A stretch of DNA of 64,000 nt, from assembly GCF_022045235.1 (NCBI RefSeq), contig NW_027266308.1, positions 54,746,001 to 54,810,000 of the forward strand, read 5' to 3'. How positions within the stretch are numbered: the first letter of the stretch is position 1; the number at the start of each line of letters is the position of its first letter. Positions 34,519 to 58,523 of this stretch are shown one piece after another. The translations under genes were made by a program, and so were the position numbers. This DNA comes from Haliotis cracherodii (taxonomy: Eukaryota). The notes beneath the pieces were generated by a model. It saw only the letters and a program-made list of their open reading frames with translations, had not been told where the DNA came from and searched no databases.

Positions 34519-37500
34519 ATGGATATCGGAACACGGGTACTACGTGGCCCTGATTGGTCAGGAGGTGACAGTGACGGAGGTGAAGGTCACCTCGGGACTG
34601 TTGTCAGTGTAGGAGGCGAGCCAACCTGCGAAGTGCTATGGGACAATGGAAACAGTGGTACATATCGCTATGGAACACATGGGAAACACGACTTGCTTGT
34701 GTTCGACACTGGGCCCACAGGTGAGATAATGGTTGCACCACATGTGTCATCTAATATATCATTCCAAAGTATGTTTTAATTATTTTCCCTGTGAATTGAA
34801 TCTAGTCTAATAGGGATACTGTGGCTATATATGTATGTGTATGCAAACGCGTGTAAGATTTAAAGCATATGTTTTGAATCAAGCATTTGAAAGGCATTTA
34901 GAAGTGATACACATGAGGAAGAGAAGTTATGGATGTCAACTTCTTTATAATGAGGAACACAACGTTTCGGAGTATTTGCTTACTCCTTCATCAGTTGAAT
35001 GAATGATATGAGGCAGAAAGCATATATATGTACATGTAAGAACAACAAAAGCCTCATGGCATTCATTCACCTGATGAAGGAGTAAGCATATACTCCGAAG
35101 CGTTGTCTTCCTCATAGCAAAGAAGTTGACGTCCATAAATTATCTTCCTTACATGTTTTGAAGGTTGAAATATTTATTGTGGTCAACATGCTTTCCTTCA
35201 TATATAGAACTGAATAAAAAGAAACTATCGTATTTGTCATCACATCTGCAAAAGATTAGTTTTCATATAAAAAAGCGAAAAATTGAAATACTCATTAGAC
35301 CCAAAATTAAAAGAATGTAACAACTTCCTCTATCTTATTTTATGTGGTGTAAAGAGGAAATATATGTCCCATGGCTATATTGTCGGTTTTGCTTTTCACG
35401 TACTTTCCAGGACTTCAACATACTGGAATTCTTTGTAACGGATGTGACGTATTCGGAATAGCAGGAACACGCTGGGCGTGCAGCACGTGCAAAACGTGCA
35501 ACCTGTGCAGTGTGTGCTATGGGAACGCTGAACATGATATCGCTCATGACTTCGTCAGATATGACACGCCGGGATGCGAAGGGTAATATTCTTTAACTAG
35601 TCGCACATTTTTGTTTTTACATATCCAACTTCCTAATGACCGCAATATATATTATGAAGATAATCTAGTTACAAGTACCTCGAACCTATCGTAGGTAATG
35701 AGTGAGTGAGTGAGTGAGTGAGTATGGTTTTACGCCGCTTTTAGCAATATTCAAGCAATATCACGGCGGGGGACACCAGAAATGGGCTTCACACATTGTA
35801 CCCATGTCGGTCGTATGTAATGAGGTTGTTTACGATGTGGTGTAAAGTTAGGTCTGTTTGAAACGGCACGAAGATTTAAGAGACGAGGTTTAGGAGGTCA
35901 TAGTGAGGCCTTTGTGAAACGTGGACCAGGACAAATTGGGACGATCTTCACAAAAGTGTTGTGATATGCTTCATAAGGCCACAACAATATTATTTCCTCT
36001 CACTTGGTTTTATGTTCTAGTGTCAGTGTCCCCCCACGGAGAAAAGGTGTTCGAATACAAGCCATGGGCTTATTCCCGAGAGCAAGGGTTGCGCGGGGAA
36101 TTAACTGGTCATCGAAAGATGAAGATGGTAAACTGCATTTATAAATACTACTGAAAAAGTGAGTGAGTTAGTTGAGGTTAACGCCGCTTTGAACATTATT
36201 CCAGTTATATCACGGCGTGTCAGCTTAATGTGGGAGGAAAGCCCGAAATTCTGCAGGTCTCAGACGTTTACCACTTCGGTGAAACCCACGAGCACGGGTA
36301 TGGTGCTGACAAACTTAGAAACAATCGGGGCGAACCGGGATTCGAACCCACAATCATGGGTATTGGTGTCCCGGATATGACACGCCGGGATGCGAAGGGT
36401 ATATTCTTTAATTAGTTACCCTTTTTTTCTAAATATCCAACTTCCTAATGACCCACAATCATGGGTATTGGCGTGTCCAAGGGACGCAACTCTGCACAGC
36501 GAATCGCGTCGCCTTGGACGAATGGGCCACCTGTGCCCCTACAGAACACTCGCAAGGTTGTGTGTTGCACCAGACATGACAGATCAACTATAGTCATTTG
36601 AAAAAATCGGGTGTTCTTCAACTTCTTTTGAGTAGTACATATCAAAATGATAATTGCTGAAATTACGTGTATCCTTAGTTTGGCACACTTTAGAGTCTTA
36701 CAATCGTGAGTGAGTTACTAGTATTTAAAAAAACCCATTCCTCTGTATACTTTGCGGGAGTTAATTCTTCTTTAAGGTCTTTTTCTGGTCTCTTGGAAAC
36801 AATTCTTCATTTGCAGAGTATGTAGTTTTAAACGCCTTATATCTAAATATTCCGAAAATAAACGACTCAAAACTTGACGGTGGTTTGCTCATACAAATAT
36901 CAAGAGTTGTGTCCCACGAGCCGTGCTTCAATGTATGACCGGATCATATGACCGACATGATACAATTTTGATGTCGCAGGCGGAAAAGACGCTGAAGGTG
37001 AAGTGAAGTGTGTTGAGGACCACCCGAGTGGAACCTCATTTAGGAGCATGGTGAAAGTGGAGTGGAACTGCGGCAACACTGGGTCGTACCGAGCTGGACA
37101 TGAGAGCAAGGTGGAGGTCAAGGCTGTCACAGAGTTTCCAGGGACGTTTTACTACAGGGATCATTTACGATTATTCACCGGGTCCGAAAGTGCAGCAACA
37201 CATGGCGCAAAGAATGGTATAGATATATATTGTTTTATTTGATATAAAAAAACGAGATATCAATACCTGAACTCTAACACATGAAACATATCTAACGCGG
37301 CTTTCAAATGTAGAGGGGGCGGTCGGGTAGCCTAGTGGTTAAAGCGTTCGCTCGTCACGCCGAAGATCAATGTACTGGCTACAATGTGTGAAGCCCATTT
37401 CTGGTGTCCCCCGCCGTGATATTGCTGGAATATTGCTAAAAGCGGCGTAAAACCAAACTCACTCACTCACTCAAATGTAGAGTTGTTATATCGGGTGGTA

Positions 37501-38581
37501 TCAGCTTATTTTGTAGAAACGTCCACATCAATGCACGCACGGACAAAACCGAACCCACAACCAGCGGATCCTGGTACATTTGTAAAATGACGCGGTGATT
37601 GAGACCACTGGGCCACTCGTTCCCGTAGTCAGTGATAATATATCCAACAAAGAGGAAGGGAATTAATATATGTTTTCTGTACGTAGAAAAGTCGCCTCCG
37701 TAGTTCTTATCGCAGAAGGGACGGTGGGGTAGCCCAGTTGTTAGAGGGTTGGCGCGTCTCGCCGAAGTGTTCGATTCCAAAAATGAGACATATTTGATGT
37801 TGTTGGTATAATTCTAATGACGGTGTAAAACTTACTCAGTTTCATCACAGGAATCAGATATTCGTACATAGCCATGTTGTATGGTTTAATATTTCTACCG
37901 ATCCATTCGTATTACAGTAAACTACGTTTATAACGAACACGCTTATAACGAACTGACCGATATAACGAACTTATTTTTTAGTCCCGACCATTTGTTGCAT
38001 AGATGCTGTATATACGCTTATAACAAACTACGGTTATTACGAACTAGTGGCCCCTTTGAGTTCGTTATAACCGTAGTTTACTGTACTAGCACCAACACCT
38101 TTCTTCATTAAGAACAGCCACAGTCTGCCCAACGGTCCCAGCTGTCCCCGGGGGACCGGGTGTGTATCCGTGTGACCGTGGAGGAACTACAACAGCTTCA
38201 ACAGAACATCAGCCATTGGGATCCCCATGTTCTCCAGGTGTTTCAACATCATCCTTATAACCATTTTTCTGTTAGACTAGGGTAACTGTAGCAGACATCC
38301 CATTGATAAACAGTACACCATGTCTATTCATATATTGGCGACCGCCTCCGTGCTCTTGTGGTAGAGCGTCCGCCCGGAGAGCGGAAGGTCCGGGGTTCGA
38401 TCCCCGCCCGCGTCATACCAAGAGACTTTAAAAGATGGTACTTGTTGTTACCATGTCTGGCGCTCGGCATTAAGGGGCTAAAACAAGGACTGGTCGGCTC
38501 GGAGTCAGTATTCTGTGTCTGAGTGGGGTATTCATATAGCTAGTACTATAAATCGGCATCAGTCCGGACAAGTACAAGCAG

Positions 38582-38630
<49 letters not shown>

Positions 38631-41600
38631 ATATAAGTGCAATAATCTTGGACGCGACGTTAAACCCAATTTCACCTCACCTCACCTCATATATTGGCAT
38701 CAATCTAATCTGTATAATTAATATGATCACATGAATAGACATAATGTTGGTCCCATACTTTAACAGATTTAGAATTGTTTTCGACGTATGTTTCTATAGG
38801 CTCTCATACTATTCGTGGCATTAACATTACTTGACGGGGCCGCGTGGATCCGCAAACTAAGTAATATCTTAAAGAAGGTCAAGCTGCAAGCTATCCAGTT
38901 AATCGTCACGAAGATAAAAACTACAGAAATACATTTTCAGTTACTTCATCATGCCACAAATTAGGATAAGGGCATTCTTGACCCACTGCAAATATCAAAT
39001 TTGTAAGTTCCGAACACTTTTATTGTTCTATCTAAATACTATATCTAAATACATGACATCTAGCCTTTAATTTTCTTGGACTTGCTCGTTTCGGACTTTT
39101 TGGCATCGCCAAGTACATATGAATGGCTATGACTGAAACTATCAGATTTTTCAAAGGAATGAGGGAGACTTTTACCCCATGTTTGTGTTGTCTCCATCTA
39201 CAACGCCTGAAAAAAGACTTTTTCGTGTTCAAGTATTATTTTAGAAAACCTCTAACATAAGTTGTTTTAAAACATTTTAGCGGCAACTGTGCATTTAGTG
39301 TTATAAGTCCAAGACACACACCTGTTGAATACACAAATTGCACAAGTTATATAATGATTTCTGATAGCGTAGCTCATTCCTCAGATGAGGCAGATACTGT
39401 AGGCCGAAGAAGGACCTTACTGTACCCTGTCCTCTCCTTTCTTCACAGAAACTTATCTAGCAATTTCAATTACGCCTTGACACACATCAAATTCAAATAG
39501 TTTCAAATGGTAGTATACTGACGCTAATGGCCATGTTCCCGGTGTACACAGTGTTTGCCGATGTTGGGAACTGTGAAAGGCTGCAAGAAGCCAGGCCAAG
39601 TGGAGGTGGCGTTCCAGTGGCCAATCAGAGGACTGTTGGAAATTGGAACGCATATCATTAATGAAAAGGCGTTGAAAAAGGTAGCGTATAAACTCGCTCC
39701 AGGAAATATGATAATCATCATGTAAAATGAAAACTCATTCACTCACTCTAGTCATTGTCTATTCGCTACTGAACCGCTTTCGTGGCCTAGTGGTAGAGCG
39801 TCCGCCCGGAGAGCGGAAGGTCCGGGGTTCGATCCAATTTCACCTCACCTCACCTATTCGCTACTGAGACACACTCCTTCTCCGGTATGGGGAAACAACA
39901 GTATCGCCTGCAGTACAACTTTAGGCGTCCTGGTGACAACACACCTATAGAGCTGGCGTGGACGACTGTCGTAGTAATTAATTGGATACGCGTTAGAACT
40001 GTTTGTTTGTTTAACGCTGCACTCGGCAATATCACAGCTATATGACGGCGGTCTGTACATAATCGAATCTGGACCTGACAATCCAGTGATTGACATCATG
40101 AACATCGATCTATGCAATTGGGATCAATGACATGCATCAACCTAGTCAGCGAGCCTGACCACCGATCCCGTTAGTCGCCTCCTACGACCAGCATTGTCGC
40201 CTTTGATGGCAAGCATCGGTTGCTGAAGACCTATTCTACCCCGGATCTTCACGGGTCGGATACGCGTCAGACAAACCAGTAGTTGATAATATGAGAACTG
40301 AACCGAGTCGTCCCCACATTACGCCGACAAGATGACATGATACTGTTTAAATTAGCTTTTTACCAAGCTCATCCTTTAATCTTTCGACACTTTGTATACA
40401 GATTGACACCATCAAGGAAGGCGATAGTGTGCGGATCATTGAAGATGTCAATGAAATGAGACGACTTCAATTGGGCCATGGTGGATACAGCCCCATTATG
40501 TCAATGGTGGGTCTACAACACCTACTTTCCTCAAAAGCACACCAATACCGTTTAAATATGTTAAATCTATCTCTGCATTTGGTAAGTACTGATGTTGACA
40601 TATACCTTCAACCAGAGGTGTCGCATTGTACTTCCTTTTATCATAAAGCTGACGCCGTAAGTCTATGATAGCTTTTGTTTGCCATGTTGGCAACGTTCCA
40701 ATAAGAAAAGATAACTCATCCTCAAATCCGGACATCCTGGCATTCATATCCGGATAATACCGGATTAAAACAGATACAAAATCAGACATTGGGCAAAAAA
40801 ACACCTCTTCCTCACTTACGGGCCTGAAATCGTTCAAACGTAACAGGAGCGGTCGGGTAGCCTAGTGGTTAAAGCGTTCGCTCGTCACGTCGAAGACCCG
40901 GGTTCGATTCCCGACATGGGTACAATGTGTGAAGCTCATTTCTGGTGTCCCCGCCGTGATATTGCTGGAATATTGCTAAAAGCGGCGTAAAACCATACTC
41001 ACTCACTCAAACGTAACATGTGTCATTACCTGCACAACGATTTGAAATATTTGTATGACCGTTTCGTGACTTCTATGATTGAATTCATTGAACCTAAACT
41101 CACTCACTTCACAATTTGCTAAACTGAATCTTACGGTCATTCAGACATTGAGCAAAAAGATCACCTCACCCCCACTTACGGGCTGAAATCGTTCACATGT
41201 TACATGTTTCATAACCTGCACAATGATGAGAAATATTTGCATGACCGTTTCGTGACTTCTATGATTGAATTCATTCAACCTAAACTCACACACTTCACAA
41301 TTTGCTAAATTGAATCTTACGGTCATTCAGACACTTGGCAAGGTTGGAAAGGTCCGTGCGGTCAACCCACTCGGTGATGTAGTGGTCAGTTTCGGCAGAG
41401 TTGTGTGGCACTTCAGTCCTGCCTGCTGCAGTCGAGTCCAACCACAGCGAGAGGACAACCTGGAAGAGCTGGATGATGGACACAGCACATTGATAGGTTA
41501 CCATAAGATAACCTCAAGACTTAAGATAGATTTTGTTTGTTTTTGTTGTTTAACGCCGCACTCAGCTATATTCCAGCTATACTACGGCGGTCTGTAACCA

Positions 41601-44600
41601 GACAATCCAGTGATTGATATCATGAGCATCGATCTACGAAATTGGGATACGATGGCATGCATCAGCCAAGTCAGCGAGCATTTGCAAGTTATAAAACAGC
41701 GTTAAAGGTTCAAAACATGTAGTCACCTTTTATAGTCCGGTTTATGTAATATTTATTACAAAGAAACTTGAAGTCTTGGGAAGCATTGACAGTATATCGA
41801 GTTATCCGCACTTTGAGACAACTAAACCTTAGTCCCTCAGGTGATTCTACTTGAAGTTACTCTGTCTCTATCGATTGAAGGAGTGCGAGTTAATGAAGCT
41901 TTACTGAAATTTTAACAAATTATGGTGAACAGGTGCGATATGATTTCAGGTGACTCCAGCCCTGATGTGTTCCTACCCACCATGGTGGACGGTAGCCCCA
42001 CGACAGACGAAGGCCTGATTGCAAAGGCAAACGGCATGTTTGATGCTTTTTCCAAACAGAACTTCAGCCTCTTCATGATGATTTTTAAGTTGGATGAGAG
42101 ACTGGTAAGTGCAGGCTCTAAAAAATTAATACCGTATTTCCTCTATTTGACGTCGAGGATCTAAAACACGCCAGCCTCTAATTGACGCCGGTGCACTAGG
42201 CTCAAACGACTCCCCCTAAATTTGAATCTTGACTCATATGGACCTAGGCCCCCACATGACTCCCCTAGCCAGGCTCAAAACACTCCCTCTAGTTCAGCTA
42301 ACTCCCCCACTGGGTTCAAATGACTCCCCTTGTTTGGAATTAAAATGATTACAGAAAAGATGAAACATATCTTGTATTATAAAGGTTTCCAACCCCTCTT
42401 CCTCATTTTCTATTCTAAAATGTCAGGTTAAGAACAATCCCCAATATTGTGTGTCAGATGTTTAGTACCAGTTATTTTATTTTATTAAAGTTTTATTTTT
42501 AACTTTATTTGGGAAAAACTTAAATCACTAAAATAGAAGCCGGGCCTCCATCAGACGTCGGGGCCATCGTTTGATGAAATTAATTATCCCTATGACATTT
42601 AATTACGTGATGTAATGATAACTCCCTTCACACAATAATAACTGTTTCCTGCAAGTGTAACCTGTGTATGCCTGTAGAATGTGGGATTCAGTGAGGTAGT
42701 GAATTGCCATTGTGCCAGCATGAAACAGATTAGACGCCTCTCATAGACGTCGGGTCAACGGCTTGTACGTAATTAATAGACGCCCGGGCATCTAATAGAG
42801 GAAATACTATAGCTTCTTTACGAAGACTGTCAATTTTCATAAGGCTGCGCGGCTTCTTCCGCATGGAAATAATTGAGAGGTTGAACGACGTCGTGCATTT
42901 TCTGTCAGTTAGTATAATTTTACCACAATGAATGCTCTTATCGCGTCACAAAACGGTTCCTTCTGTCATCATGTAACGTGGTGGGCATCGATCTAATACA
43001 GACCGCATCTACATTGTAATGACAAATGAAATCAACATGTATCAAGTTTTTTAATGTAAACATAGTGTTTATTTGTCTCGAACAAGCAGGTGTCTTTCCT
43101 TTCAGGACCAAAAACAGAATTTTTATTTTGATCATTGTTGTTTTTTTCCTTCCAATTAGAAAAATATCATTCATCATGGAATAACGCCCCTGATTCTCGC
43201 CTGCTCCGCCGGCGTTGTCGATGTCGTGAAGCAATTGTTGGATGAAGGAGTGGACATCAACCAGAAGGATGTGGGACAACAGACGCCATTGTTACACGCC
43301 CTCTTCAGGTAAAAGCCCACTGCGCTACACCTTATGTATTGGTCTGTGGCGAATACCAGTGGTGAATTTTAGGGATAAACGTATTGCCTTTTCCGATATG
43401 CGTATTTGGAGTATTTGAAACCTGGGTATTTTATTTGAACCTACGGCAACATGTGTCTCAGGTCAGATCAGGTCCAGAATATTACATTAAACATTTACTC
43501 CTGCAGAGACGCAGATGATGTCCTCGAGATCTTGTTGGCGCGAGGCAGTGACGTGAACCTGGCGGGTCAGCAAGGCATCACTCCGTTACACATGACTGTC
43601 ATAAATAAAGGGACGAAACACGTCAGTCTCCTGGTGGAGAGGAAAGCAGATGTCAACATTCGGGTAAACTGAAACACGCATCTCAGTTTGTTAGTAAGGA
43701 CGCTGTGAAAGCCCTTTATCCATCCAATGCTGATGCACTACTAATTATTTCAGTCTCATTGATGATGCACTACACTTCAAATTTGACTTCACCTCGATCG
43801 CGATCCCGTCGCTTCAGAATAGCGTCCGTTCCCGTTACCATCTCTTCGACATATATTATACTGTGTTCCAACTTCATCGCGTTCCCGTCGCGTCAGAAAA
43901 GCGTCCGTTCCCGTAACCAATCTCCTCAAGATATATATTGTGTTCCAACCTCATCACGGTCCCGTCGCGTCAGAATAGCGTTCGTTTCCGTAACCAATCT
44001 CCTCGACGTATATATTGTGTTCCAACCTCATCGTGATCGGAACGCGATCGACTTCCATGACCTGATTGGGCCCGTGAAGATTCCGGGGTAGAATAGGTCT
44101 TCAGCAACCCATGCTTGCCGTAAAAGGTGACTATGCTTGTCGTAAAATGCGACCAGCGGGATCGGGTGGTCAGGCTCGCTGACTTGGTTGATGCGTGTCA
44201 TCGATCCCAATTGCGTGGATCGATGCTCATGATATTAATCAATGGATTGCCTGGTCCAGACTCGATTATTTACAGACCGCCGTCATATAGCTTGAATATT
44301 CCTGAGTGCGGCGTTAAACAACAAACCAAACCAAACCATGACCTGATTGCGATCGATTATGTAGAAATCCTTAACACTGGCATTCGAGTCGTCCTTGTTT
44401 GAGGTTAGCAAGGATTAATATCAGTACCAAAGTCATCTTATGTTCATTGACCTTCATTGCTAGTGGTAAGAGGCGACTAACGGGATTGAGTGCGGCGTAA
44501 AACAACCAACCAACCAACCAAACTATGGAGTCAGTTTTGGGAATATCTGAGACTAATTATTATTCTTTTCAGTTCGTAGCTTGTCCTTCAAAATACGTTT

Positions 44601-45984
44601 TCGCGAGAGCTTGTCAATGAGCTAAACGCGGTTTAAAAAATATTGTGCCTATTTCCCAAGGTAAATAGATTACGGATGGTTTTGAAATTGGTTTACATAA
44701 AGGCTTATTTATTATTAGACCGCCGTCATACAGTTTGATATTGCTGACAACAAACCAACATTAACCATTGCCTTTTCTTTGGCTAACACAACACATAATG
44801 CGTGTCGTCGATGCCCCATAAGGTGAAATACTAACTCCTTAACAAAAATTACTCCCTACCTAGTGTAAAAAATAGACTGATAAAGGCTTGACAGTCTCAA
44901 TCCTGAAGATGCGTATTACATAGGCGACCCCGGGAATATCTAGTTCCTTGAAGCATGATTTATATGTTCGTCTCATTAAAATGGATGCGGTAGGACCTAT
45001 CATAAACGATTGACATATTCCGTTGGCATACATTCCAAAAAGGTGGATCAATATTATTATAACCAGATCGTTTACTCCGATACGATACCCGTGTCAAGCA
45101 CGGCGACAAACAGAGAGGTATCATATTGGAGTAAACCATGGGTCTATAATGAGATTGATCCACCGTTGAGAATGTATGCCAACTGAATACTAGTATATAC
45201 AAGGCTCGTGAAGATCCGGGGTAGAATACGTCTTCAGCAACCCATGCTGGCCGTAAGAGGCGACTAACGGGATCGGATAGTCAGGCTCGCTGACTTGGTT
45301 GATGCATGTCATCGATCCCAATTGCGTGGATCGATGCTCATGTTGTCAATCACTGGATTGTCTGGTCCAGACTCGATGTTTTTACAGGCCGCCGTCATAT
45401 AGCTTGAATATTGCGGAGGGCGGCGTTAAAGGAAGATGTAGATAATAATCCATCAACTCCAGAGAATAATATGTCTCCAGCACTTGCCGAAGCAAATGCC
45501 ATTGGAGGTAAAAGGCAAAATAGTGGTGAAAATTATTTGAACGGATCACTGAATCTCAATAATGACACCAGGTGTTCGCGAAAAGGGTAAGCATGTCCTG
45601 CTTTACCACTATAACACTTTCTCTTTTCTTTCTCTCCTAGGACAAGAATGGAAACACACCCATTCATGTCGCGATAGGAATGGGTAAAAAGGACCTGCTG
45701 TCTTTGCTGCTCAAAGCTGAAAATATTGATCACAGAATATGTAACCAAAGCAACTTCAACAACCTGCAGTTGGCATCACTGACAGGGAACTATGAGTAGG
45801 TTGATCCATTTGATAATTACTGCTTTGAATGGGCATATATACAAAACGCTTAAGGGTTACCCTTCTTCGTACAGGCAGCTTAGGCTGTATACTCCCTAGG
45901 GAGCTGAGAATGAAATCGAGTGCTCACTGATACTTTGGCCGAGGTCATAATGATGTAACGCTTGTGTGGTGTTTAAGTATTGTA

Positions 45985-46019
<35 letters not shown>

Positions 46020-46227
46020 CTAGTACTAGTACTAGTACTAGTAGTAGTAGTAGTAGTATAAAAAAAATATTTTTATTATTCACAGGTTAAAATAAATAAA
46101 TAAATGCAGCAAAGAGGGTTTGGATTATCCTAGAACAGTCAGACTGGTGAGAATGAAATCGACTGCTCACTGATACTTTGGCCGAGGTCATAATGATGTA
46201 ACGCTTGTGTGTAGTTTAAGTATTGTA

Positions 46228-46277
<50 letters not shown>

Positions 46278-46284
46278 CTACTAC

Positions 46285-46322
<38 letters not shown>

Positions 46323-49300
46323 TAAAAAAAATATTTTTATTATTCACAGATTAAAATAAATAAATAAATGCAGCAAAGAGGGTTTGGAATATCCTAGAAC
46401 AGTCAGGCTGGTTAGCTCAGGGCCCTTGCCCTCTCTAAACGCAGCCCAGACAACGAATGGGTCTCCCCCGAAGAAGCCAAACCTAAGACACCGAGAACAA
46501 TGGGGAGTCGTACAACGTGGTACTTGGGATGCAAGCGTGACATTTCGAAAGCGAGCTCCGCATATTTGCCATGTTTTTCCTGAATTTTGTCGAACACATT
46601 AGTGTCAAAGGGGACAAAAAAATTCAATGATTAACATTATTTTATTGGATTTATCAAAAAGGACAAGATCAGGTTTATTGGCCTGGATACGTCTGAGGCT
46701 ATATACGGGCCTATTCCAACGTATTTATCATTTTCCCTGACGCCCTCTACATATTCTGGGTTGTACCATGGATGGACCTCTGTGTTTAAACCACAAGCAT
46801 GACGAAGACGGTAATAAAAGGATCGATCCACTCCATCATGTCGCTTAAGATACTATGTTTGTGCCAAAGCTGGGCATCCACTGACAATGTTTTGTCTCAG
46901 TAAATTCATTGCATAATCCACATTTTATATTTACATTTTCATGCAAAATCACACATAGACGGTTTCGAGTGGGAAGTGACTATTCCTGAGCATCAAACAG
47001 AAAGCCTTCTGTTTCACTTTTCAGGCCAGCCGAATTCAGCGAAGGACTCTGCAGGGTTGCTGATCACCCCACTGCGCATAAACTCGATGCAGTGGTCGTT
47101 CAGATAGCCACTCCTTCAAAAACTAGGCCGATTTGATTTGGCACTTCGTTTGGTTGACACTCATTTCTATATCGTCCAGCAGTACAGAACCATCAACAAA
47201 ATCAACATTGATATTGAGATTATGTCCCACATTATTATTTTCTACGGGATATCGTTCAATTGATACTAGTTATCCTTTTGATTACCTGTTACGATAACAA
47301 TGATCTTCACAATAAAAGTGATTATTGTGCCATAGGGACAGCTTCAAACAAAAATGTTTTCTGTCGAATACATGCTTCATCTTCTGGTGTGTTATTACAG
47401 AATTCTCCAACGGGTGATGGCCGTGACGCCACTCGATGTTGTCGACCTCGGGATGGTGGATACAAGGTTCACGGCGCTACATATTGCTGCTAACAATGGC
47501 CACACCGACTGTGCCACTATTCTCATCGAAAAGGTAAGACGATGATTAAATACAGAAATGACGGACTCTATTAAAGATGTATTATTCCATTGTTTTTCAT
47601 TACATATAGTTTGGCTTGGTTACAAGCGTATTAGGGGCGGTCGGGTAGCCTAGTGGTTAGAGCGTTCGCTCGTCACGCCGAAGACCCGGGTTCGATTCCC
47701 GACATTGGTACAATGTGTGAAGCCCATTTCTGGTGTCCCCCGCCGTGATATTGCTGGAATGTTGCTAAAAGCGGTGTAAAACCGTACTCACTCACTACAA
47801 GCGTATTAATACGTGTCCTAGATTTCACACATCCTCGATTGTCCCTGCTATTTTGATTAATACCCCAGACCCACGTCACAATAGCTTCGTGTGGAGTCCG
47901 ATAAAAATAGTTTTTCTCTTCAGCGAGATTGATGCAGTGATAAGCTGGAGATATATGATGACGTCACTTGCGAGATATCCCTGGACAATAGAGGATGTCT
48001 GACACAATCAGACACGTAAAACCCTATCTTGGTATCCTCCATCACGACCAAGATTCCTTCTCCCTAAGCCAATATCATCTTCCGTGCATCACAAAAAAAC
48101 AGAATGAAGGGTAATACTCGCAACAGATATGTTTGTTTTTCAGGGTAAGGCGAATGTTAATGCACAAAACATTCATGGAGTGACACCTCTAATTCTGGCC
48201 TGCTCGGGGCTGTATGACACTACTGTGGCTCTACTATTAAGGAAAGGTATTTGAAACACATCATGCCGCTGGTTCTGTAATTAATAATACTTACATCGTA
48301 TAAACTAATACTTAGTGGGGGCACGGGTGGCCCAGTCGTCTAAGGCGCCGCGAATCGCTGTGCAGAGTTGCGTCCCTTGGGCACGCCAGAAACCTATGAT
48401 TGTGGGTTCGCCCCAATTATGTTTCTAGGTTTGTCAGCACCATACCCATGCTCGTGGGTTTCACCGAAGTGGTAAACGTCTGACACCTGCAATCACTTCG
48501 GGCTTTCCTCCCACATTAAGCTGACACGCCTCGATATAACTGGAATACTGTTAAAAGCGGCGTTAACCCGACTCACTTACTCACTCACTAATACTTAGTA
48601 GTTTGAACCACCAGCTACAGGGGTCTCACACTCTGTATGCATCTGTAGTGCTACTCCTAGTATGTCTCCCAGACCCAAGAGACGAAATTAAGAAATGAAT
48701 TTAACTCAAGTCTAAAATGACATTCAGCATTGTTCTGGCTCCATTTTGATTTTATGTTCTATTTTGTAGATACGCTTTCAAATAAGATGACTTAACTTTG
48801 TTTCTGGGACTAGTAAAACACCTATTAATGAAGCATTAATCATAATCGAAATCACATGGGGAGTGATATATGTATGGTACATCATTTGGACACCACGTGC
48901 CACCGTCACACGTGCATGATTGTTGAAATGATAAAATACATTATCATGGGTGATGTTTAACTTGACAAATATGTGACATTTACTGTATGGATATACGTGA
49001 CATGACTGCCATGTACAGACGGGGCTTATACTAGTTCCAGACAAATAATGTTTTGATAAGGGGCGACCATTTTATAGTATGAGGGAACGGGATGGGGGCA
49101 AAGGATTTGTTTTGAAAACAAATTTGTCCTAAGGTTTTCCCCCTCAGAAACAGGCTCCTTCTTTCAGAGATAAATATGCGTGTTTTAAAGCATAGAATAA
49201 TCTGTCTCTTATATAAATCCCAGCCCAGAGTCATGCACGGTGTTGCACAGTCAGACCTAGGTAGAAGTGTTGCACAATCAGACCTAGGTAGAAGTGTTGC

Positions 49301-52300
49301 ACAGTCAGACCTAGGTAGAAGTGTTGCACAGTCAGACCGAGGTAGAAGTGTTGCACAGTCAGACCTATGTAGAAGTGTTGCACAGTCAGATCAAGGTAGA
49401 AGTGTTGCACAGACAGACCTAGGTAGAAGTGTTGCACAGTCAGACCTAGGCAGAAGTGTTGCACAGCCAGACTCAGATAGAAGTGTTGCACACTCAGACC
49501 CAGATAGAAGTGTTGCACACCCAGACCGAGATAAAAGTGTTGCACACTCAGACCCAGACAGAAGTGTTGCACAGCCAGACCTAGGAAGAAGTGTTGCACA
49601 CTCAGACCCAGATAGAAGTGTTGCACACTCAGACCCAGATACAAGTGTTGCACACTCAGACCCACACAGAAGTGTTGCACACTCAGACCCAGATAGAAGT
49701 GTTGCACACCCAGACCGAGATAGAAGTGTTGCACACTCAGACCGAGATAGAAGTGTTGCACACTCAGACCCAGAAAGACGTGTTGCACACTCAGACCCAG
49801 ATAGAAGTGTTGCACACTCAGACCCAGATAGAAGTGTTGCACACTCAGACCCAGATAGAAGTGTTGCACAGCCAGACCCAGATAGAAGTGTTTCACACTC
49901 AGACCCAGACAGACGTGTTTCACACTCAGACCCAGACAGACGTGTTGCACAGCCAGACCCAGACAGACGTGTAGCACAGCCAGACCTACAGTATAGATCA
50001 AAGTATATCACAGTCGGACCTAGGGTCATCTCGGCATATCCAGACCAGGCGTGGCATAATGTACATTCATTCATTTGAAGACCAAAGATCAGATCGGTCG
50101 TTGGTAAAGATTGACGTCATTTGAACTAGGACTATACACCTCAGTGAATATTTCTGTCAACATTATCTTCTCATCGTTACTTTCTCTTAGGTGCTGATGT
50201 CAGTGTCGCCGACAACGCAGGGGACACGCCTCTGCACTTCACCATCCGTCCACAGAGGGACCCGGCTATTCGATTCCTTATGGTACGGCATGTTACCAAG
50301 ATACAGCGCCTTTGGCGTATTCTTTGGCAGTTACACCTCATGTACCTACAAGAACATAAGGGGCGGTCGGGTAGCCTAGTGGTTTAAGCGTTCGCTCGTC
50401 ACGCCGAAGACCCGGGTTCGATTCCCGACATGGCTACAATGTGTGAAGCCCATTTCTGGTGTCCCCCGCCGTGATATTGCTGGAATATTGCTAAAAGCGG
50501 CGTAAAACCATACTCACTACAAGAACATAAATCAAAGGCTACGTGTTCTGTTTCGGGCGTTTAGAATAAATAAGTAATAATAAGTTTGGATTAAAGAATT
50601 ATGGGTATGGAGTTGTGTCTATGTAAAGCATACCAAATTAAATTGTCGGGTAGGCAGGCTTTTCCGCTGAGCGTTATTCATAATACTGCAGCTCACGATA
50701 TTGCAACGAAACTACATGGTGCGTGTAATTTTTAAAAAACACATTACTTTTCGGAAATCCCAATTGATGTAAAAACTTTACCCATGGATACGCCATGTTT
50801 TTTACTCTCATTCCCGTTACTCCATATAAACAGATAACTGGTTTAGGCTGTGTATTTATCGTGAATGCAGTCTTTTAACACGTTCGTGGAGTCTCATAAC
50901 CGTTACAATAGTCTTTTGAACGGGTGAAATAGTCTGGTGGATTAATTGGGACAGTGATGTGGAACTGGCCAGGTACACGAACTGTGGTACACAGCCATGG
51001 AATTGAGGTTCATACATGTTGTTTTAGGTTCCGAGACCTGACGAAAGCAAGGTGCGCATCAAAATAGCGTGCCTCCTCTTACAGAAAGGAGCGAACATAT
51101 ACAGAAGAAACGCCCAGGGGAGAACAGCCCTTGACTGTAACGACGACTCAACTATCAGGACAGCCGTGTTAACATTCACGGAACAGATGTACATCAATTT
51201 AGCACATTTAACATTATTGTACCGTATCATACACTTTAATTTGTGACTTGTGACTTGTGATGTGCGAAATATTCGTGATCTGATTACGTTTGTTTGTTTG
51301 ATGCTTTACGTCGCACTCAGCAATATTCCAGCTATATGACGGCGGTCTGTAAATAATCGAGTCTGGACCAGACAATCCAGTGATTGACATCGTGAGCATC
51401 GATCCACGCAATTGGGATACGATGACATGTATCAACCACAGCGATCCCGACCTCCCGATCCCGTTAATCGCCTTTTGCGACAAGCTTGGCGTGCTGAAGA
51501 TCTATTCTACCCCGGATCTTCACGGGTCCAATAATTTAGGGGAAAGGCTGTCGTATCTGGCCTGGTGTTTGTAAATCATAACGTTAGAGCCATGAGGTGC
51601 GGACAGGGTCTGTACAAACTACAGACAAGTCAAACAAACGTCAGCAATGGCCCCCCTTTTCAGTGCGTTATGTTACATCTCTGGATATGAGCGATGTGGA
51701 TGTGTGGATCGAATGTTGTCATATCACCATGTGTTGTTGCAGAAACCGTACAGTGAGTCTCTGTTAGTCTGGAAAAACAGTTTTCCAGACGTTAGCTGTT
51801 TTGGAGGTCTTTATATAACATTCAGGATATTACACATTCGTGACATTCGTGTTATTCCGGGACAAGCCGAATAGCAACTCGTGCTCCTCTCGTGACCATT
51901 TTTGCGACTGGGTTCCGTCTAACTCTTTGCGTATTATTTCCCCCATATATCATATATATTTCAGATGTTATTTAAAACACATCGGGGCATACAGTATCAT
52001 ACAGTATCATTGAACACATTAAACTGCATCTTGGGTATATTTTTTAATGCAATACATATGTAAAATCAACATTTTGTCCGAAGTACTTGAAGTCATACGC
52101 GCATTGCATTCTGGTTGGTTTGTCGTATTTTCGCACATAACAATCATCGATAGGGGGACGAGTCTTCGGTTACGGAAAGGGTCGAGTGGTGACAAATAGA
52201 TATTACATAGTTGTGAAGCCGGCGAGTTCACTGGGAATACGTCTGTCCGGATTGACGATGGTCTACTATACACAATTAACCATTTATTGTTTTACATGGC

Positions 52301-53852
52301 GGGGATAAATTTCATATGTAGTATATGTTTACATGGCGGCGATATATTTCATATGTAGTCTATTTTCCGTTCTTTCTAAACCCCAATATTCATTTTCAGA
52401 TATGTATAAATATATGGGTAGACGTATTCCCGCCATGTACGAATGATATCTACACAGACATGTGTATGGTGATTGATGTGTCGGTAATGTGAAGTGTAGC
52501 TGACTGTGCATACTGGTTTCATACAACAGTGCATCTGTGCTGAAGTGGGAGTTTAGTTGATGTAGGTGGTGAGGTCGCCCGAGTTTCGGTCGGTTGCAGT
52601 TGGTTGGAGAATAATCAAAGTAAGCACACACAATGTCTACACAACCAGAGAGATTGCGTGAGTTGGACTTTACACGCTATTTTAGCAATATTCCAGCAAT
52701 ATCAAGGCAGGCCCACCAAAAATGAGTAAATATGGTACATTGTATTTTTTATTACTATCGAGTGGGTTTGGTCGCTTGTATTTACTCGCATTGTATCTAA
52801 GGGGGGAATCAAGCCCGCATCTCCAGTGTGACGTCGCTTGTATTTACTCGCATTGTATCTAAGGGGGGAATCAAGCCCGCATCTCCAGTGTGGCGATGTT
52901 TTAACCACAAGGCAACCCCACAGCCTGTTGCAAAGATTTAGATTTCTCTTAAAAGTTGTATCTGTAATAAGGTTGTTTTTTTAGGGGACAGTCATCTTCG
53001 TCAGCATCAGGTGCTTCAGCGTCCCCGTCAACGAGCACGTCTACTCAACACGAAGCATCAACGCCAGGTGGACCAACTCTATCCCTTCCTTGTTCCAACT
53101 GTTTGACCAGAATAGTGGACATCCAACTCAGGCCATGTGGCCACAGGTTCTTGTGCAGAGCGTGTGTGGCGACCGTTAAGCAGTGCCCCTCCTGTAAACA
53201 GGACATCAAGGATGTGGATGAGATTCAGGGTGAGTGTTAACAGTCTCAGGGTGAGTCTCAACAGTCTCAGTGTGAGTCTCAACAGTCTCAGGGAGAGTGT
53301 TAATAGTCTCAGGGTGAGTCTCAACAGTCTCAGGGTAAGTGTTAACAGTCTCAGGGTGAGTCTTAACAGTCCCTGGGTGAGTCTCAACAGTCTCAGGGTG
53401 AGTGTTAACAGTCTCAGGTTAAGTGTTAACAGTCTAAGGGTGAGTCTTAACAGTCCCTGGGTGAGTCGCAACAGTCTCAGGGTGAGTCTTAACAGTCTAC
53501 GAGTAAACATACCCCCAAACAAACAAGCAACTTGTTGGAATACATATCTTTCGTTTTTTAATAACTGGTTATCATGTGAACTTCATGTCTATTTTGACCG
53601 CCTCCGTGGACTAGTGACAGATCGTCCGCCCGGAGAGCGGAAGGTCCAGGGTTCGAACCCCGCCCGCGTCATACCTAAAAACCTGAAAAGATGGTACTTG
53701 TTTTTGCCCTATCTGGCGTTCGGCATTAAGGGGCTAAAACAAGGAGTGGTCGGCTTGGAGTCAGTATACTGTGTCTGAGTGGGGTATTCATGTTAAACTG
53801 CGGCATGGTATCTCAGTGGGCTAGCACTATCACTCCAGACTACAACCAGCAG

Positions 53853-53934
<82 letters not shown>

Positions 53935-54027
53935 GTACATGCACGTCGCTATATAAGTGCAATAATCTCGGACGCGACGTTAAACCTCATTTCACCTCAC
54001 CACCTCATGTCTATTTTGTTATCCAGG

Positions 54028-54072
<45 letters not shown>

Positions 54073-54202
54073 GTACATGCACGTCGCTATATAAGTGCAA
54101 TAATCTCGGACGCGACGTTAAACCTCATTTCACCTCACCACCTCATGTCTATTTTGTTATCCAGGTTCAGGACTTAAAGATCAGTCGTGTAAAGTACAGT
54201 GA
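34519..54202 (+). CDS. Mind bomb family (MIB2-like) E3 ubiquitin ligase: MIB/HERC2-ZZ-MIB/HERC2, two Mib repeats, ankyrin repeats, one C3HC4 RING, C-terminal CaaX; 18 coding exons, 876 aa
   Basis: Exons 34519-34720, 35411-35582, 36021-36127, 36980-37216, 38113-38237, 39552-39680, 40402-40506, 41331-41496, 41950-42104, 43160-43308, 43507-43663, 45641-45795, 47401-47533, 48144-48246, 50191-50282, 51028-51188, 52985-53229, 54165-54202. All introns are GT-AG with matching phases, total 2631 nt. Motifs: GTRVLRGPDW..DGGEGHLGTV (MIB/HERC2); CNGC..CSTC..CSVCY..H..H (ZZ); GDRVCI and GDSVRI..LQLGHGG (Mib repeats); TPLILAC, TPLH, TALHIAA (ankyrin); CSNC..PCGH..CRAC..CPSC (RING). Confidence 0.92.
34911..35156. 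mobile_element. Palindromic element with two hammerhead-like cores (Penelope-like derivative)
   Basis: About 95-bp inverted arms, each containing CTGATGA-A-GGAGTA-loop-TACTCC-GAA(A/G)CGTTG. Confidence 0.65.
36158..36538 (-). mobile_element. SINE family A carrying an internal insertion
   Basis: Family A sequence interrupted at 36374-36452 by a copy of the MIB exon 2 donor region. Confidence 0.85.
37315..37472 (+). mobile_element. SINE family C
   Basis: TSD TCAAATGTAGAG. Confidence 0.9.
37915..38083. mobile_element. Tc1/mariner-pogo-type MITE (same family)
   Basis: TIR and TA TSD; lies about 30 bp upstream of the MIB exon 5 acceptor. Confidence 0.9.
38340..38687 (+). mobile_element. SINE family D
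   Basis: TSD TCATATATTGGC. Confidence 0.9.
40000..40256 (-). mobile_element. SINE family B
   Basis: Full length, TSD GGATACGCGT. Confidence 0.9.
40846..41008 (+). mobile_element. SINE family C
   Basis: TSD TCAAACGTAACA. Confidence 0.9.
42132..42808. mobile_element. Non-autonomous DNA transposon (pogo/Tigger-like TIRs)
   Basis: Ends TA|CCGTATTTCCTCTATT ... AATAGAGGAAATAC; subterminal GACGYC motifs. Confidence 0.6.
43797..44035. repeat. ~78-bp tandem repeat, 3 copies
   Basis: CCCGTCGCGTCAGAATAGCGTCCGTTCCCGTAACCAATCTCCTC recurs. Confidence 0.85.
44069..44336 (+). mobile_element. SINE family B
   Basis: Full length, TSD CCATGACCTGATTG. Confidence 0.9.
46325..47190 (-). pseudogene. R4/Dong-like LINE fragment (restriction-like endonuclease domain)
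   Basis: Frameshifted RH..VDRSFYYRLRHACG..NKPDLVLFDK..IIEFFVPFDTNV..KHGKYAELAFEMSRL..VVRLPIVLGVLG (PD-(D/E)xK-type motifs); the 3' end abuts a (TAG)n tract. Confidence 0.75.
47634..47795 (+). mobile_element. SINE family C
   Basis: TSD TACAAGCGTATTA. Confidence 0.9.
48317..48588 (+). mobile_element. SINE family A
   Basis: TSD ACTAATACTTAGT. Confidence 0.9.
49239..49990. repeat. 27-bp minisatellite in MIB intron 14
   Basis: Unit AGAAGTGTTGCACACTCAGACCCAGAT, about 27 copies. Confidence 0.95.
50359..50518 (+). mobile_element. SINE family C
   Basis: TSD CTACAAGAACATAA. Confidence 0.9.
51289..51527 (-). mobile_element. SINE family B
   Basis: Near full length; forms part of the inverted repeat with 57186-57650. 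Confidence 0.85.
53222..53505 (+). repeat. 21-bp minisatellite made of repeated 5' splice sites
   Basis: Unit ACAGTCTCAGG|GTGAGTCTCA/GTTA starting at the RING exon donor; about 13 copies. Confidence 0.95.
53596..54005 (+). mobile_element. SINE family D
   Basis: TSD TCATGTCTATTTTG; long internal (CA)n. Confidence 0.9.
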
Positions 54203-55261
54203 ACTGTAGACGGTGCCACAGTAAAGAACCAGACAGATTCATCCATGGAAGAACAGAAATTTACAAAACAATATTTTTGCAAAACATGAAACTTAGCGTC
54301 CCGTCAAGTTGTTCATGATTAATAGTGAGTTACTTTTAACGTTGAATGTTTTCCTGCCGCACACATCGGCTTTTTCACCAAATATTAAACACATAATAAA
54401 CAAGGCCGCACAAACCATCGGCTACGTGCCCAGATCAACGACAGCCATGAGCATTCTTCAGTTATCGTTTGTCCCACGTTCATACAGATTTGACCCTCAA
54501 AGCCGAAGTCAGCTCTTCAATGTTTGTTAGTGTCTTTGTACGTATGTACCGTATTTCACCACCGTTGTAATATTAACGTATTTCGATGTCATGGGAGACA
54601 ATTTGTCATTACGATCAGACTAAGTCTGAAACAGCATAAATTATATCCAGACTAACACTTGTGGCTTTATTCACTCGGGTACATATGAAACGTCCATCGT
54701 GGGTGGTTGTTGTAGCATGCCATCAGTACTGTAATTATAACGATTAGCTTTTGTTTCATTTTGGCAGTGTCGTATTCTGAACAGCGTTCATACACATGTA
54801 GAATACTAAACGAGCTCCCGTGAATACCAAATGTATGAAAGGAGTGTGTAGTTCTGGTATCTGTCAGATACCAGAACCATTCACGAGTGTAACAGAATAA
54901 TACTTCAAACAGCTCAAAAGTTTATACTTATTAATTTCATGCCATACCATGGCCCACCTTCAGGGGTCTGTTTCATAAAAGATATCTCAGCGATAAGCTC
55001 GGGGATGTTGAGAGTTTTCAATATTTTTTCGTAAAATTTTATTTTTCACATTACATAAGCACGCGCTTTGGTATTACACAATGTGTGATACAGCTGTATG
55101 TTTATTAAACGAGGGATTTCTTCACGGGCAAATAATAAACTTATTTCTTTGAAAATGCATGTACATATAACTACACGGTATAACCAATGATATGAGTGTA
55201 CACAATAACTGTGTGAAACAAGGTTAAAGTCTGTGCTAACATATAGGTTGCTTACATATAG

Positions 55262-55555
55262 GTTATCTCCATATATCGGTTAAGACGACGCCATTGTATA
55301 TGACCCAAGTCGAATTCCTGTTGGCACCATGGTCCAACATCGACAGTCTGCTTGTCTCGTACTCCGTTATCTCGATATGTCGTTTAAGACATGCCTCTCC
55401 AAGCAGAATTCCTGTCGGTATCATCGTCCAACATCGACAGTCTGCTTGTCTCGTACTCCGTTGTTATCTCGAGAAGTCGTTTAAGACGATGCCTCTCCAA
55501 GCAGAATTCCCGTCGGCATCATGGTCCAACATCGACAGTCTGCTTGTCTCGACCT
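55262..55555. repeat. ~100-bp tandem repeat, 3 copies
   Basis: GTCCAACATCGACAGTCTGCTTGTCTCG recurs three times. Confidence 0.85.
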
Positions 55556-56688
55556 ACTCATCACTCTATGTAATACTTTGGTCACAACCACTTCGACTTT
55601 TTATGACATTGTATTTTGTACATTAGTTAGAGCTAATATCATCGTCATCATTGTTATTCTCATCTTCAAATCAATACAGCATAAGAAAATCTGCTTGTTT
55701 TGTTTTTATTACTAATGTTATTATCATAAAGATCTGCAACTCTTTGTGAAGGGAAAAAACACTTGACCATTACAAATAACATTCCGCAAAGTGAGATGAA
55801 TGTTGCCGCAGACAGCAATCTCCGAGTTATTTCCTTTGGCGAATTGTATATGTCGTGAAATATTGTGGCACCAAAAAAAGGTAGTATTGTTTTACCTGTC
55901 TGTGTATAACGTCTGTATGGTTTCAGAGGACAGGATGATCTCATTGTGACAACCTTTAAACATTTATAAACAATATAGATTCTTTCAAAGTATCCATTTA
56001 TTGGGTGAAGCAATTTCTTAGATGTATTTCGCATAATCGTTAACAATGACTAAGTTGCCTAAATAAAATTGTCAGACACAAAGTTTCAGTTGGGTCACTT
56101 TAATATTCTTTAAACAATACTTTACACTCTTCGCATTTCACAAGATGAACCTTCATTCTTAATCTAAGTAGCATAATCAGCAAGATAGGCTGTCAGAATA
56201 GCAGCTTTCTCGACCTGTTGGAAAATGTTTTAAAAATTCTAAAATATAACTTCGGTTCTGGGGAGCCCAAAAAATTCAATTGTTTTTGGTTAATATCAAA
56301 TATAAACATACTTAAACTCGAGTATCACACGAATTATGTGAAGATTGTTTTACCTCATTTAGAAATACATACACATCAAAACGTATACCCAGGCTATGAA
56401 AAGCGTTTGTAAGGTTAAACATTTCCGGTACTGCCCACATGGTATTAACTGAATACAGAGACAATTCATTCGAACTGCAACAGATAATGTTTTTTTAAAA
56501 CTGTGCTATGAAGAATTGTCAGTCCTTGCAATCTTGGTCTACCTCGTGAACGGTTCAAACTGGTTATCTGCTCAATCAACCTTTGTGTATGATGCCTATG
56601 TTAATGATTTCCATAATTACACAGAGACAATGGCTTAGTTTTTACACATGACATTAACTACGTCTCAGCCTACACTAGAATTGGGCTC

Positions 56689-56789
56689 CAGGGCCCACTT
56701 GCACAAAGCGATCTTAGCGCTGAGATGATCTTAACATAGGATCTTACGATAGTCTTAGCGCTAAGATCGTTTTGTGCAAGTGGGCCCTG
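56689..56789. mobile_element. ~100-bp palindromic MITE
   Basis: CAGGGCCCACTTGCACAAAGCGATCTTAGCGCT...AGCGCTAAGATCGTTTTGTGCAAGTGGGCCCTG; related fragments near 9260 and 57930. Confidence 0.8.
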
Positions 56790-56935
56790 ATCGTGGAGTA
56801 TTGTCCCCTGTTAGAGCAGGATGTTGTGATGCCGATATAAAATTTAAGTAAAGGCCAACATCTATAAATATGATCTGTACTTACAACTACTTACGACATA
56901 CTAGTATTCATACTTGACCTTATTCAACATATGTT

Positions 56936-57186
56936 CATCCGGGGTAGAATAGGTCTTCAGTAACCCATGCTTGCCGTAAAAGGCGACAATTCTTGTCGTA
57001 AGAGGCGACAAACGGGATCGGATGGTCAGGCTCGCTGAATTGGTTGATGCATGTCATCAATCCCAATTGCTTGGATCGATGCTCATGATATCAATCACTG
57101 GATTGTCTGGTCCAGACTCGATTATTAACAGATCGCCGTCATATAGCTGGAATATTGCTGAGTGCGGCGTAAAACAACCAACCAAC
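56936..57186 (+). mobile_element. SINE family B
   Basis: Near full-length copy. Confidence 0.85.
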
Positions 57187-57389
57187 CATGGTGATACGAC
57201 AACATTCGATCCACACATCCACATCGCTCATATCCAGAGATGTAACATAACGCACTGAACATGGAGGACATTGCTGACGTTTGTTTGACTTGTCTGTAGT
57301 TTGTACCGACCCTGCCCGCACCTCATGGCTCTAACGTTATGATTTACAAACACCAGGCTAGCAACAACAGCCTTTCCCCTAAATTATTG

Positions 57390-57650
57390 GACCCGTGAAG
57401 ATCCGGGGTAGAATAGATCTTCAGCAATCCAAGCTTGCCGTTAAAGGCGACTATGTTTGTCGTTAGAGGCGACTAACGGGATGGGGAGGTCGGGCGCGCT
57501 GTGGTTGATGCATGTCATCGTATCCCAATCGCGTGGATCGATGCTCACGATGTCAATCACTGGATTGTCTGACTCGATTATATACAGACCGCCGCCATAT
57601 AACTGGAATATTGCTGAGTGCGGCGTTAAGCAGCAAACCAACCAACCAAC
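57390..57650 (+). mobile_element. SINE family B
   Basis: Full length; shares diagnostic variants with 51289-51527. Confidence 0.85.
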
Positions 57651-58226
57651 CACACGCACTTGCCAACATTCAAGTGCAACAATTGTGAACAGGACGGTAA
57701 ACCCCATTTCATCTCACCTCACTTATTTAACTCGTGATAGCGCCATGAATGTGATTGCAATAACCTGTTTCCCTTCGTAAAACGGGCACGCCCAGGATCT
57801 ATTTTTGGAAAACACGGGTAGTTACCAGTCTCGTTACCAAATAAGGAACAGTCCGTTATGCAGGTTATGTCACGTGGAAGACGCGATGGAATGAATGCGG
57901 ACGAATTGTGTTACACAAATGATTACTGGGTGTTCACGTGCGTAAAGCGATCTCAGCGTTACGACTATCCTATCTACCACACGTTAACGTAGATTTACAA
58001 TAATCGGTGCCCTACAACCGCATTGTGAAAGCTGGTCCTATCGATGTAATTGATATTGATTGATTATTTGGGTTTTTTTAGAGAGACATGATATGTTTTA
58101 AGCTCATTGACAAACTCGTTCACAGTGTACGTGTAGTCGAAAGGTATTTTGAAAGACACGTTACGAACTGGAAACGTCAACGCCAAAGAATAATCAGTCT
58201 CAGATATTCCCAAAACTTTCTCCATA

Positions 58227-58523
58227 GGTTGGTTGGTTGGTTTGTTGTTTTACGCCGCACACAGCATTATTGCAGCTATATTACGGCGGTCTGTAAATAA
58301 TCGAGTCTGGACCAGGCAATCCAGTGATTGATATCATGAGCAGACAATCCAGTGATTGATATCATGAGCATCGATCCACACAATTGGGATACGATGACAT
58401 GGATCAACCATAGCGAGCCTGACCACCCGATCCCGTTAGTCGTCTCTTACGACAAGCAGTGTCGCCTTTTTTTGGCAAGCATGGGCTGCTGAAGACCTAT
58501 TCTACCCCCGGATCTTCACGGGA
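58227..58523 (-). mobile_element. SINE family B
   Basis: Full length with small internal duplications. Confidence 0.85.

Follow-up and report, generated by a model that had tools for sequence, protein, structure and literature searches.

We analyzed a 64,000-nucleotide stretch of the genome of the abalone Haliotis cracherodii (NCBI RefSeq assembly GCF_022045235.1, contig NW_027266308.1, positions 54,746,001 to 54,810,000 of the forward strand), referred to below as the window. It contains a Mind bomb gene on the plus strand (34519-54202) whose product has a single RING finger and ends in a CaaX box, the C-terminal signal for prenylation. The gene has 18 coding exons, 17 of 17 introns are GT..AG, and the one open frame is 876 codons long. 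Exon boundaries were fixed by hand from the DNA between 34000 and 57999. The 876-residue translation is the sequence of P0001 (XP_071079435.1), which carries the NCBI label 'E3 ubiquitin-protein ligase MIB2-like [Haliotis cracherodii]'. For the splice junctions that precede exon 12, the evidence is the open frame and the NCBI model alone; exons 12 and 16 were found on spliced contigs. The parts of the gene are:

34519..34720 (+): coding exon 1, with the start codon and the first Mib_herc2 domain
35411..35582 (+): exon 2, ZZ zinc finger
36021-36127, 36980-37216 (+): exons 3-4, second Mib_herc2 domain, which completes the MZM module (Mib_herc2 - ZZ - Mib_herc2)
38113-38237, 39552-39680, 40402-40506, 41331-41496 (+): exons 5-8, two Mind bomb SH3 repeats (REP)
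41950-42104, 43160-43308, 43507-43663, 45641-45795 (+): exons 9-12, first half of the ankyrin region
47401-47533, 48144-48246, 50191-50282, 51028-51188 (+): exons 13-16, rest of the ankyrin region
52985..53229 (+): exon 17, Ser/Thr-rich disordered linker (~52986-53075) and the single C3HC4 finger of the RING1/2 type
53230..54164 (+): last intron
54165..54202 (+): coding part of the last exon, with the CaaX codons at 54188-54199 (Cys873-Lys-Val-Gln) and the stop codon at 54200-54202
54203..55360 (+): 3' untranslated region, colinear with the end of the coding sequence (reaching at least 55360; AATAAA at 54395 and 55134)

The C3HC4 finger extends from C819 to C853 (53091-53195), and exon 17 ends at a phase-1 donor 11 codons past the last Cys. 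The last splice joins EIQG to SGLKDQSCKVQ, with which the protein ends.

We found that the last splice is present in assembled contigs. The original prediction, made from the DNA letters, had proposed a non-canonical Mind bomb paralogue with one RING and a CaaX on its own 38-nucleotide last coding exon. The join 53229>54165 was present in contigs of 6/6 runs (5 organisms, 5 studies; two contig searches, 4/4 runs each), which confirms the junction; the RNA label of all six runs is a guess, and we relied solely on contigs that lack the intron. In the first search, each of the four runs had one contig crossing from 53228 to 54164, where a shared G moves the join by one base, and three of the four also had the join of 51188 to 52985. 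This search was dominated by short interspersed element (SINE) matches, and its tables of depth and differences were not used. In the second search, all four runs had a loose end at 54164 that read as the end of exon 17. One spliced contig extends to 55360, into the 3' untranslated region. The 38 nucleotides are thus the coding part of an exon that itself continues to at least 55360 as untranslated sequence. No difference was listed in the 38 coding bases (4/4 runs); by contrast, 38 substituted positions and 7 deletions were listed between 54203 and 54654 (second search). Of 13 candidate phase-1 acceptors, one gives a Cys at position -4. Neither strand has a RING-like motif from 53230 to 64000, and the contigs pass from exon 17 to the CaaX exon and then to untranslated sequence, so the prediction of a single RING with no RING exons downstream held.

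The last intron is repetitive at both ends. It opens with a 22-nucleotide minisatellite made of copies resembling the exon 17 donor (53230-53500); the first copy is the one used in the contigs. At 53860-54164 lies a tandem duplication that includes CA repeats and a copy of the last acceptor. This second acceptor, at 54027, would lead to a tail of Thr-His repeats without a CaaX and was used in 0/6 runs.

The domain order that had been read from the DNA (the complete Mind bomb N-terminal architecture, ankyrins, a Ser/Thr-rich linker and one C3HC4 RING) was borne out by the gene model, Pfam and fold matches. Pfam found two Mib_herc2 domains, two SH3_15 (REP) domains, ankyrins and one zf-C3HC4_3 domain at residues 818-860. 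The ZZ finger fell under the Pfam threshold, yet it keeps 17 of the 18 columns conserved in both MIB1 and MIB2. The family features, an N-terminal MZM module, two REP repeats and an ankyrin region, are all present. By sequence and fold the nearest solved structure was MIB1 (MZM-REP, 4XI6, E = 5.6e-69; ankyrin region, 8V0E, template modeling (TM) score 0.85). The AlphaFold model had a mean predicted local distance difference test score (pLDDT) of 79; residues 787-813, which form the Ser/Thr linker, were disordered, as were the final 12 residues (865-876, pLDDT <50). A search of the ESM Atlas returned only MIB1 and MIB2 clusters and generic rings. The protein belongs to the broad Mind bomb family, yet it is neither MIB1 nor MIB2.

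We found that the CaaX is a property of a whole group of proteins. Nearly all single-ring proteins among the 120 homologues listed end in Cys-x-x-(Q/M/L). Of 50 related proteins from gastropods and bivalves, 38 had Cys at position -4 (31/38 rows of the tree clade described below and 7/12 added proteins, 10 of the 12 assigned to that clade by tree). The same 50 proteins had Cys at -2, -3, -5, -6 and -7 in 0, 1, 1, 0 and 0 cases, and Cys at -4 was found in 1/88 non-clade matches and 3/117 other ankyrin-rich matches. The homologue searches behind these counts scored 7992 and 7996 candidates; a profile search of cluster representatives gave 24 new Mind bomb-like proteins among 150 matches listed, many of them ankyrin-rich. 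The close orthologues in H. rufescens (94% identity) and H. asinina (74%) keep CKVQ. The survey thus agreed with the expectation that the terminal Cys would be conserved in orthologues, and extended it to the clade.

The endings took 19 forms: CKVQ (13 times), CRVQ, CQVQ, CKMQ, CIVM, CVIM, CVVM, CSIM, CTIL and others. Among the 38 CaaX proteins the last residue was Q (26), M (8), L (2), S (1) or T (1), and the a2 position was V or I in 29. CVIM and CVVM are familiar from Ras proteins, and CTIL and CKQL are likely of the geranylgeranyl type. The distance from the ring to the CaaX varied from 17 to 25 residues. A Cys fixed to the C-terminus at a variable distance from the ring has the pattern of a putative prenylation signal, not of a metal ligand. 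In the window protein the Cys is fourth from the true C-terminus, a2 and X are permissive, and the motif is conserved.

Members came from gastropods (Haliotis, Patella, Gigantopelta, Babylonia, Nucella, Pomacea, Littorina and Batillaria) and bivalves (Crassostrea, Saccostrea, Ostrea, Pinctada, Mytilus, Mya, Dreissena and Potamilus). The gastropod-bivalve split is of Cambrian age. None was found outside these two classes among the matches listed, which cannot show absence in cephalopods, annelids or other phyla. The description of the gene as a lineage-specific paralogue was too narrow, since this is an old, multi-copy gastropod and bivalve subfamily and not a one-off.

The abalone genome itself has seven single-ring CaaX Mind bomb genes, including the one in the window. 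The other six lie on C16 (two), C15 (two), C29 and C30. The ring exon of each of these six ends at a phase-1 donor 8-12 codons past the last Cys, as read by eye from the printed DNA. Their last coding piece is 38-41 nucleotides long in four; in the other two the CaaX was found and the acceptor was not pinned. A genome search with Mib_herc2 gave 42 matches and a single copy each of MIB1 (C34) and MIB2 (C14). About a dozen weak Mib_herc2 matches are clustered at C1:47.33-47.73 Mb and are unlike full Mind bomb genes.

The CaaX proteins formed one clade (38 of 68 tree rows, support 98), separate from the MIB1 and the MIB2 orthologues. The clade recurred with 20 rows (Shimodaira-Hasegawa-like approximate likelihood ratio, SH-aLRT, 99) and again in a third sequence set. 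Trees were made with FastTree and with a quick IQ-TREE run (LG+G4).

The intron pattern points to MIB2. The two genes have the same MZM-REP-ankyrin-RING order, and all 15 introns of this genome's MIB2 are matched in order and phase by the window gene. Of these 15, 11 align within one residue and the counterparts of four sit in poorly aligned linkers; the window gene has two extra introns. This genome's MIB1 has 21 introns, 9 of them aligned. Intron counts cover only the hand-built model and the predicted gene models of C16b, MIB1 and MIB2. MIB2 also has a phase-1 intron 10 codons past its first ring, as the window gene has at 11 codons; these positions were compared by codon count from the last Cys, the MAFFT alignment of the C-termini being unreliable there. 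The last exon of MIB2 starts with a split Asp-Gly, as in two CaaX paralogues. MIB2 differs in having a coiled coil and a second, RING3-homologous ring; the CaaX protein lacks both and is 30-41% identical to it by domain. Because intron order and phase and the post-ring intron match MIB2, the gene is probably, and most simply, a MIB2-type gene that acquired a stop codon shortly after the start of its last exon.

The single ring is of the RING1/2 type. C-x-H-x3-C spacing was found in 33/33 matched clade rings, and last-ring spacing in none; ring counts refer to 33 of the 38 clade rows, the other five having no match to the pattern. The same three-residue spacing occurs in RING1 (47/47) and RING2 (46/47) of MIB1 and in RING1 of MIB2 (14/14), whereas last rings have two residues there. 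An aromatic residue 11 places past the last Cys was found in 0/34 clade rings and 69/71 last rings; dimeric IAP-type rings use a terminal aromatic on ubiquitin. The window protein has neither a coiled coil nor a RING3-type ring. For MIB1, Cao et al. (10.1101/2024.03.01.582834) show that ubiquitin transfer and dimerization need the coiled coil and RING3, and that RING1-2 are inactive with the ubiquitin-conjugating enzyme (E2) UbcH5B. They also cite a dominant-negative effect of ring deletions, including loss of RING3, in flies.

At the positions of the MIB1 E2-contact residues and linchpin (V965, M989, P993, I994 and R996) the window protein has N821, V847, P851, S852 and K854. The V965 position is V, L, I or M in only 15/33 clade rings. 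The linchpin (R996 position) is Arg in 3/33, Lys in 6/33 and D, E, G or N in 18/33, and it is Arg in every last ring (47/47 in MIB1, 14/14 in MIB2). With RNF38, activity was best with a linchpin Arg, then with Lys and Met, and D, P, G, N and E were the worst binders (PMC12326332). On balance we consider weak or absent activation of E2~ubiquitin by this ring somewhat more likely than not. Two clade members that keep the CaaX appear to have no ring: P0294 (Patella vulgata) and P0126, with the endings CSMQ and CKQS. P0184, from a second Patella species, is also without a ring.

The target-binding head is conserved in its framework. In 27 clade proteins, zinc and core residues are kept among the 118 head columns that are nearly invariant in 17 MIB1 and MIB2 proteins. 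Positions invariant in MIB1 and MIB2 and changed in the clade include W26, Q29, V49, N59, Y60, W184 and T305, and the clade keeps only 5 of 21 conserved columns of REP1. Mean identity within the clade was 41%, compared to 56% within MIB2 and 77% within MIB1. Because several invariant head positions and most REP1 columns are changed, target specificity has likely shifted. MIB1 (4XI6/4XI7, 8V0E) remains the best match for head and ankyrins, with three rings where the CaaX protein has one.

The motif CKVQ is, as the original prediction had it, that of CENP-F. It works as a farnesylation signal when grafted onto Spindly, where it supports farnesylation-dependent kinetochore targeting (PMC4384735). 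CENP-F and Spindly are otherwise unrelated to the window protein, and in both the lipid is linked to kinetochore function and not to membrane tethering. Mean net charge over the 15 residues preceding the CaaX was -0.7 (maximum +3, n=31; -2 in the window protein), and a Cys was found among these residues in 1/31. No second membrane signal (a polybasic stretch or palmitoylated Cys) was found before the CaaX of the window protein. Rheb has a single prenyl group, as predicted for the window protein, and no second signal; its fold is unrelated, and we use it as an analogy for localization only. Farnesyl-only Rheb binds membranes weakly and non-selectively (10.1101/513473). Since no polybasic patch precedes the CaaX, anchoring is likely weak, and by this analogy a loose membrane association is likelier than a firm tether. 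The earlier term 'membrane-tethered' was too strong for a protein that lacks a second signal and shares its motif with a kinetochore protein.

Based on these results we suggest, with a probability of about 0.5, that the gene encodes a prenylated, weakly membrane-associated Mind bomb adaptor or decoy with little ubiquitin transfer of its own. This seems likelier than an ordinary ubiquitin ligase (E3) because the ring that is essential in human MIB1 is absent and there is a CaaX end instead. Farnesyltransferase would very probably modify Cys873, and the lone lipid would probably give loose, exchangeable binding to membranes. Membrane proteins may well be bound by the MZM-REP head through their cytoplasmic tails, with a specificity that has probably changed. 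As the RING1/2-type finger would barely or never activate E2~ubiquitin, bound targets would be held, shielded from MIB1 and MIB2, or passed to a partner. The word 'ligase' in the original prediction is doubtful: the remaining ring belongs to a type without activity in MIB1, and the catalytic coiled coil-RING3 is absent. The Notch, immune or cell-death roles raised there are conjectural. A more far-reaching and quite tentative proposal is that snails and bivalves have a third, ancient Mind bomb branch in which a lipid anchor replaced the catalytic module, giving natural membrane-bound dominant-negatives that would capture the tails of Notch ligands or immune receptors and shield them from MIB1 and MIB2.

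Several observations weigh against the adaptor or decoy reading, and most would favor an active prenylated monomeric E3, in which the ring recruits an E2 and co-localization by the lipid replaces dimerization through the coiled coil. The C3HC4 zinc ligands are intact in all 33 matched clade proteins. The E2-contact Pro (P993 position) is present in 31/33, compared to 1/47 for RING1 and 0/47 for RING2 of MIB1 and 0/14 for RING1 of MIB2; together with the zinc ligands this looks like selection for E2 binding, and the Pro is the chief argument for activity. The hydrophobic helix residue is mostly kept, and monomeric MIB1 I957E retains partial activity (10.1101/2024.03.01.582834), a study in which RING1-2 were tested with one E2 (UbcH5B) only. 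The linchpin Lys of the window protein is the second-best residue in the RNF38 assay (PMC12326332), and certain E2s are insensitive to the linchpin (PMC7667886). In addition, the absence of a ring in P0294 and P0126 is known from one gene model and one transcript contig. An active E3 is harder to reconcile with the frequent loss of the first-loop hydrophobic residue (Asn821 in the window protein), with Ser852 at the position of MIB1 I994, with a linchpin that is unconstrained and often acidic, and with the missing terminal aromatic and the existence of ring-less members. With an Arg linchpin in so few rings and the E2-contact Pro so widely kept, we consider an active E3 possible, though less likely than not.

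Other points against the adaptor or decoy reading concern the CaaX and the position of the clade. The CaaX is missing from 12 of the 50 clade proteins, which also speaks for a terminal Cys that is not prenylated at all and is instead there by chance, produced by an error in the gene model, or engaged in zinc binding or a disulfide. Three of the 12, in Pomacea and Littorina, are probable real losses. Eight are models that seem truncated or read through, and the remaining one is the H. rubra model P0003, apparently with a frameshift, which we count as a likely model error and not as a loss because its tail matches the last exon of the window gene one base out of frame. An unprenylated Cys is very unlikely given the splice in all six runs, a Cys that is fixed to the C-terminus and not to the ring, and last three residues that vary within known CaaX space. 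A prenylated protein could still be soluble if the farnesyl were a handle for a prenyl-binding partner, as in Spindly, and not a membrane anchor. The lack of a polybasic stretch and the rarity of upstream Cys would fit such an adaptor, as would the kinetochore origin of CKVQ. However, some clade endings are likely of the geranylgeranyl type and others Ras-like. Because Spindly did not accept geranylgeranyl motifs (PMC4384735), such varied endings are harder to square with a tight prenyl pocket, and we regard the handle as unlikely. As to descent, a grouping with mollusc MIB2 was rejected (approximately unbiased test, p-AU 4.4e-06), and neither a position as sister to all bilaterian MIB2 (p-AU 0.23) nor one as sister to MIB1 (0.21) was. 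Either the branch predates the molluscs or rapid evolution has shifted its place in the tree, and an intron pattern like that of MIB2 may be no more than the ancestral state.

Mind bomb has been treated as a two-member family (MIB1 and MIB2) of soluble ligases with an indispensable last ring. The clade described here has many copies and a CaaX in place of the catalytic ring, and databases file its members as 'MIB2-like E3 ligase'. Our literature searches found no description of a CaaX Mind bomb subfamily; subscription journals and supplements were outside their scope, and gene lists in supplements may name members. The accessible parts of PMC2770060 and PMC12577249 do not describe one. A Mind bomb subfamily that lacks the catalytic module and has a conserved CaaX instead is thus apparently undescribed. 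It offers a natural test of a question raised by the structural work on MIB1, the role of the ankyrins and RING1/2: either fingers of the RING1/2 type are capable of catalysis, or pseudo-ligases with a lipid anchor have arisen in animals and modulate the targets of Mind bomb. In farmed molluscs, tallies of E3 genes of the Notch pathway or of immunity would include proteins of different design.

Other offshoots of the family also have exchanged C-termini. Mind bomb-like proteins with a poly(ADP-ribose) polymerase (PARP) domain in molluscs and with a kinase domain in sea urchins share the head and ankyrins; unlike the CaaX proteins, they carry an enzyme domain at the C-terminus and neither a ring nor a CaaX, and they lie outside the CaaX clade. 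If the reading given above is true, the lipid-anchored branch would be one outcome of a broader pattern in which the head was reused with different tails (lipid anchor, PARP, kinase). PARP-ending genes were found at C20:4419045-4469198 (two genes) and C15:3521277-3543042 (P0103, Pfam PARP E = 1.3e-20), and PARP-type relatives in Pinctada, Littorina and Potamilus form a clade of their own. P0227 (Lytechinus pictus) and P0278 (Diadema setosum), both gene models, combine the Mind bomb head and ankyrins with a protein kinase domain. P0125 and P0131 (Mya) and P0186 (Argopecten) are long Mind bomb-like proteins of bivalves with repeated heads, one divergent ring and no CaaX, also outside the clade.

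Two other features of the window lie on the minus strand. An open frame at 894-1241 (-) ends in a hydrophobic segment and has no Pfam match; it resembles the final exon in genes for membrane proteins of the claudin/PMP22 type. At 63423-63998 (-) there is a broken remnant of a DDE transposase of the Tc1/mariner type (Pfam DDE_3, E = 1.1e-08).

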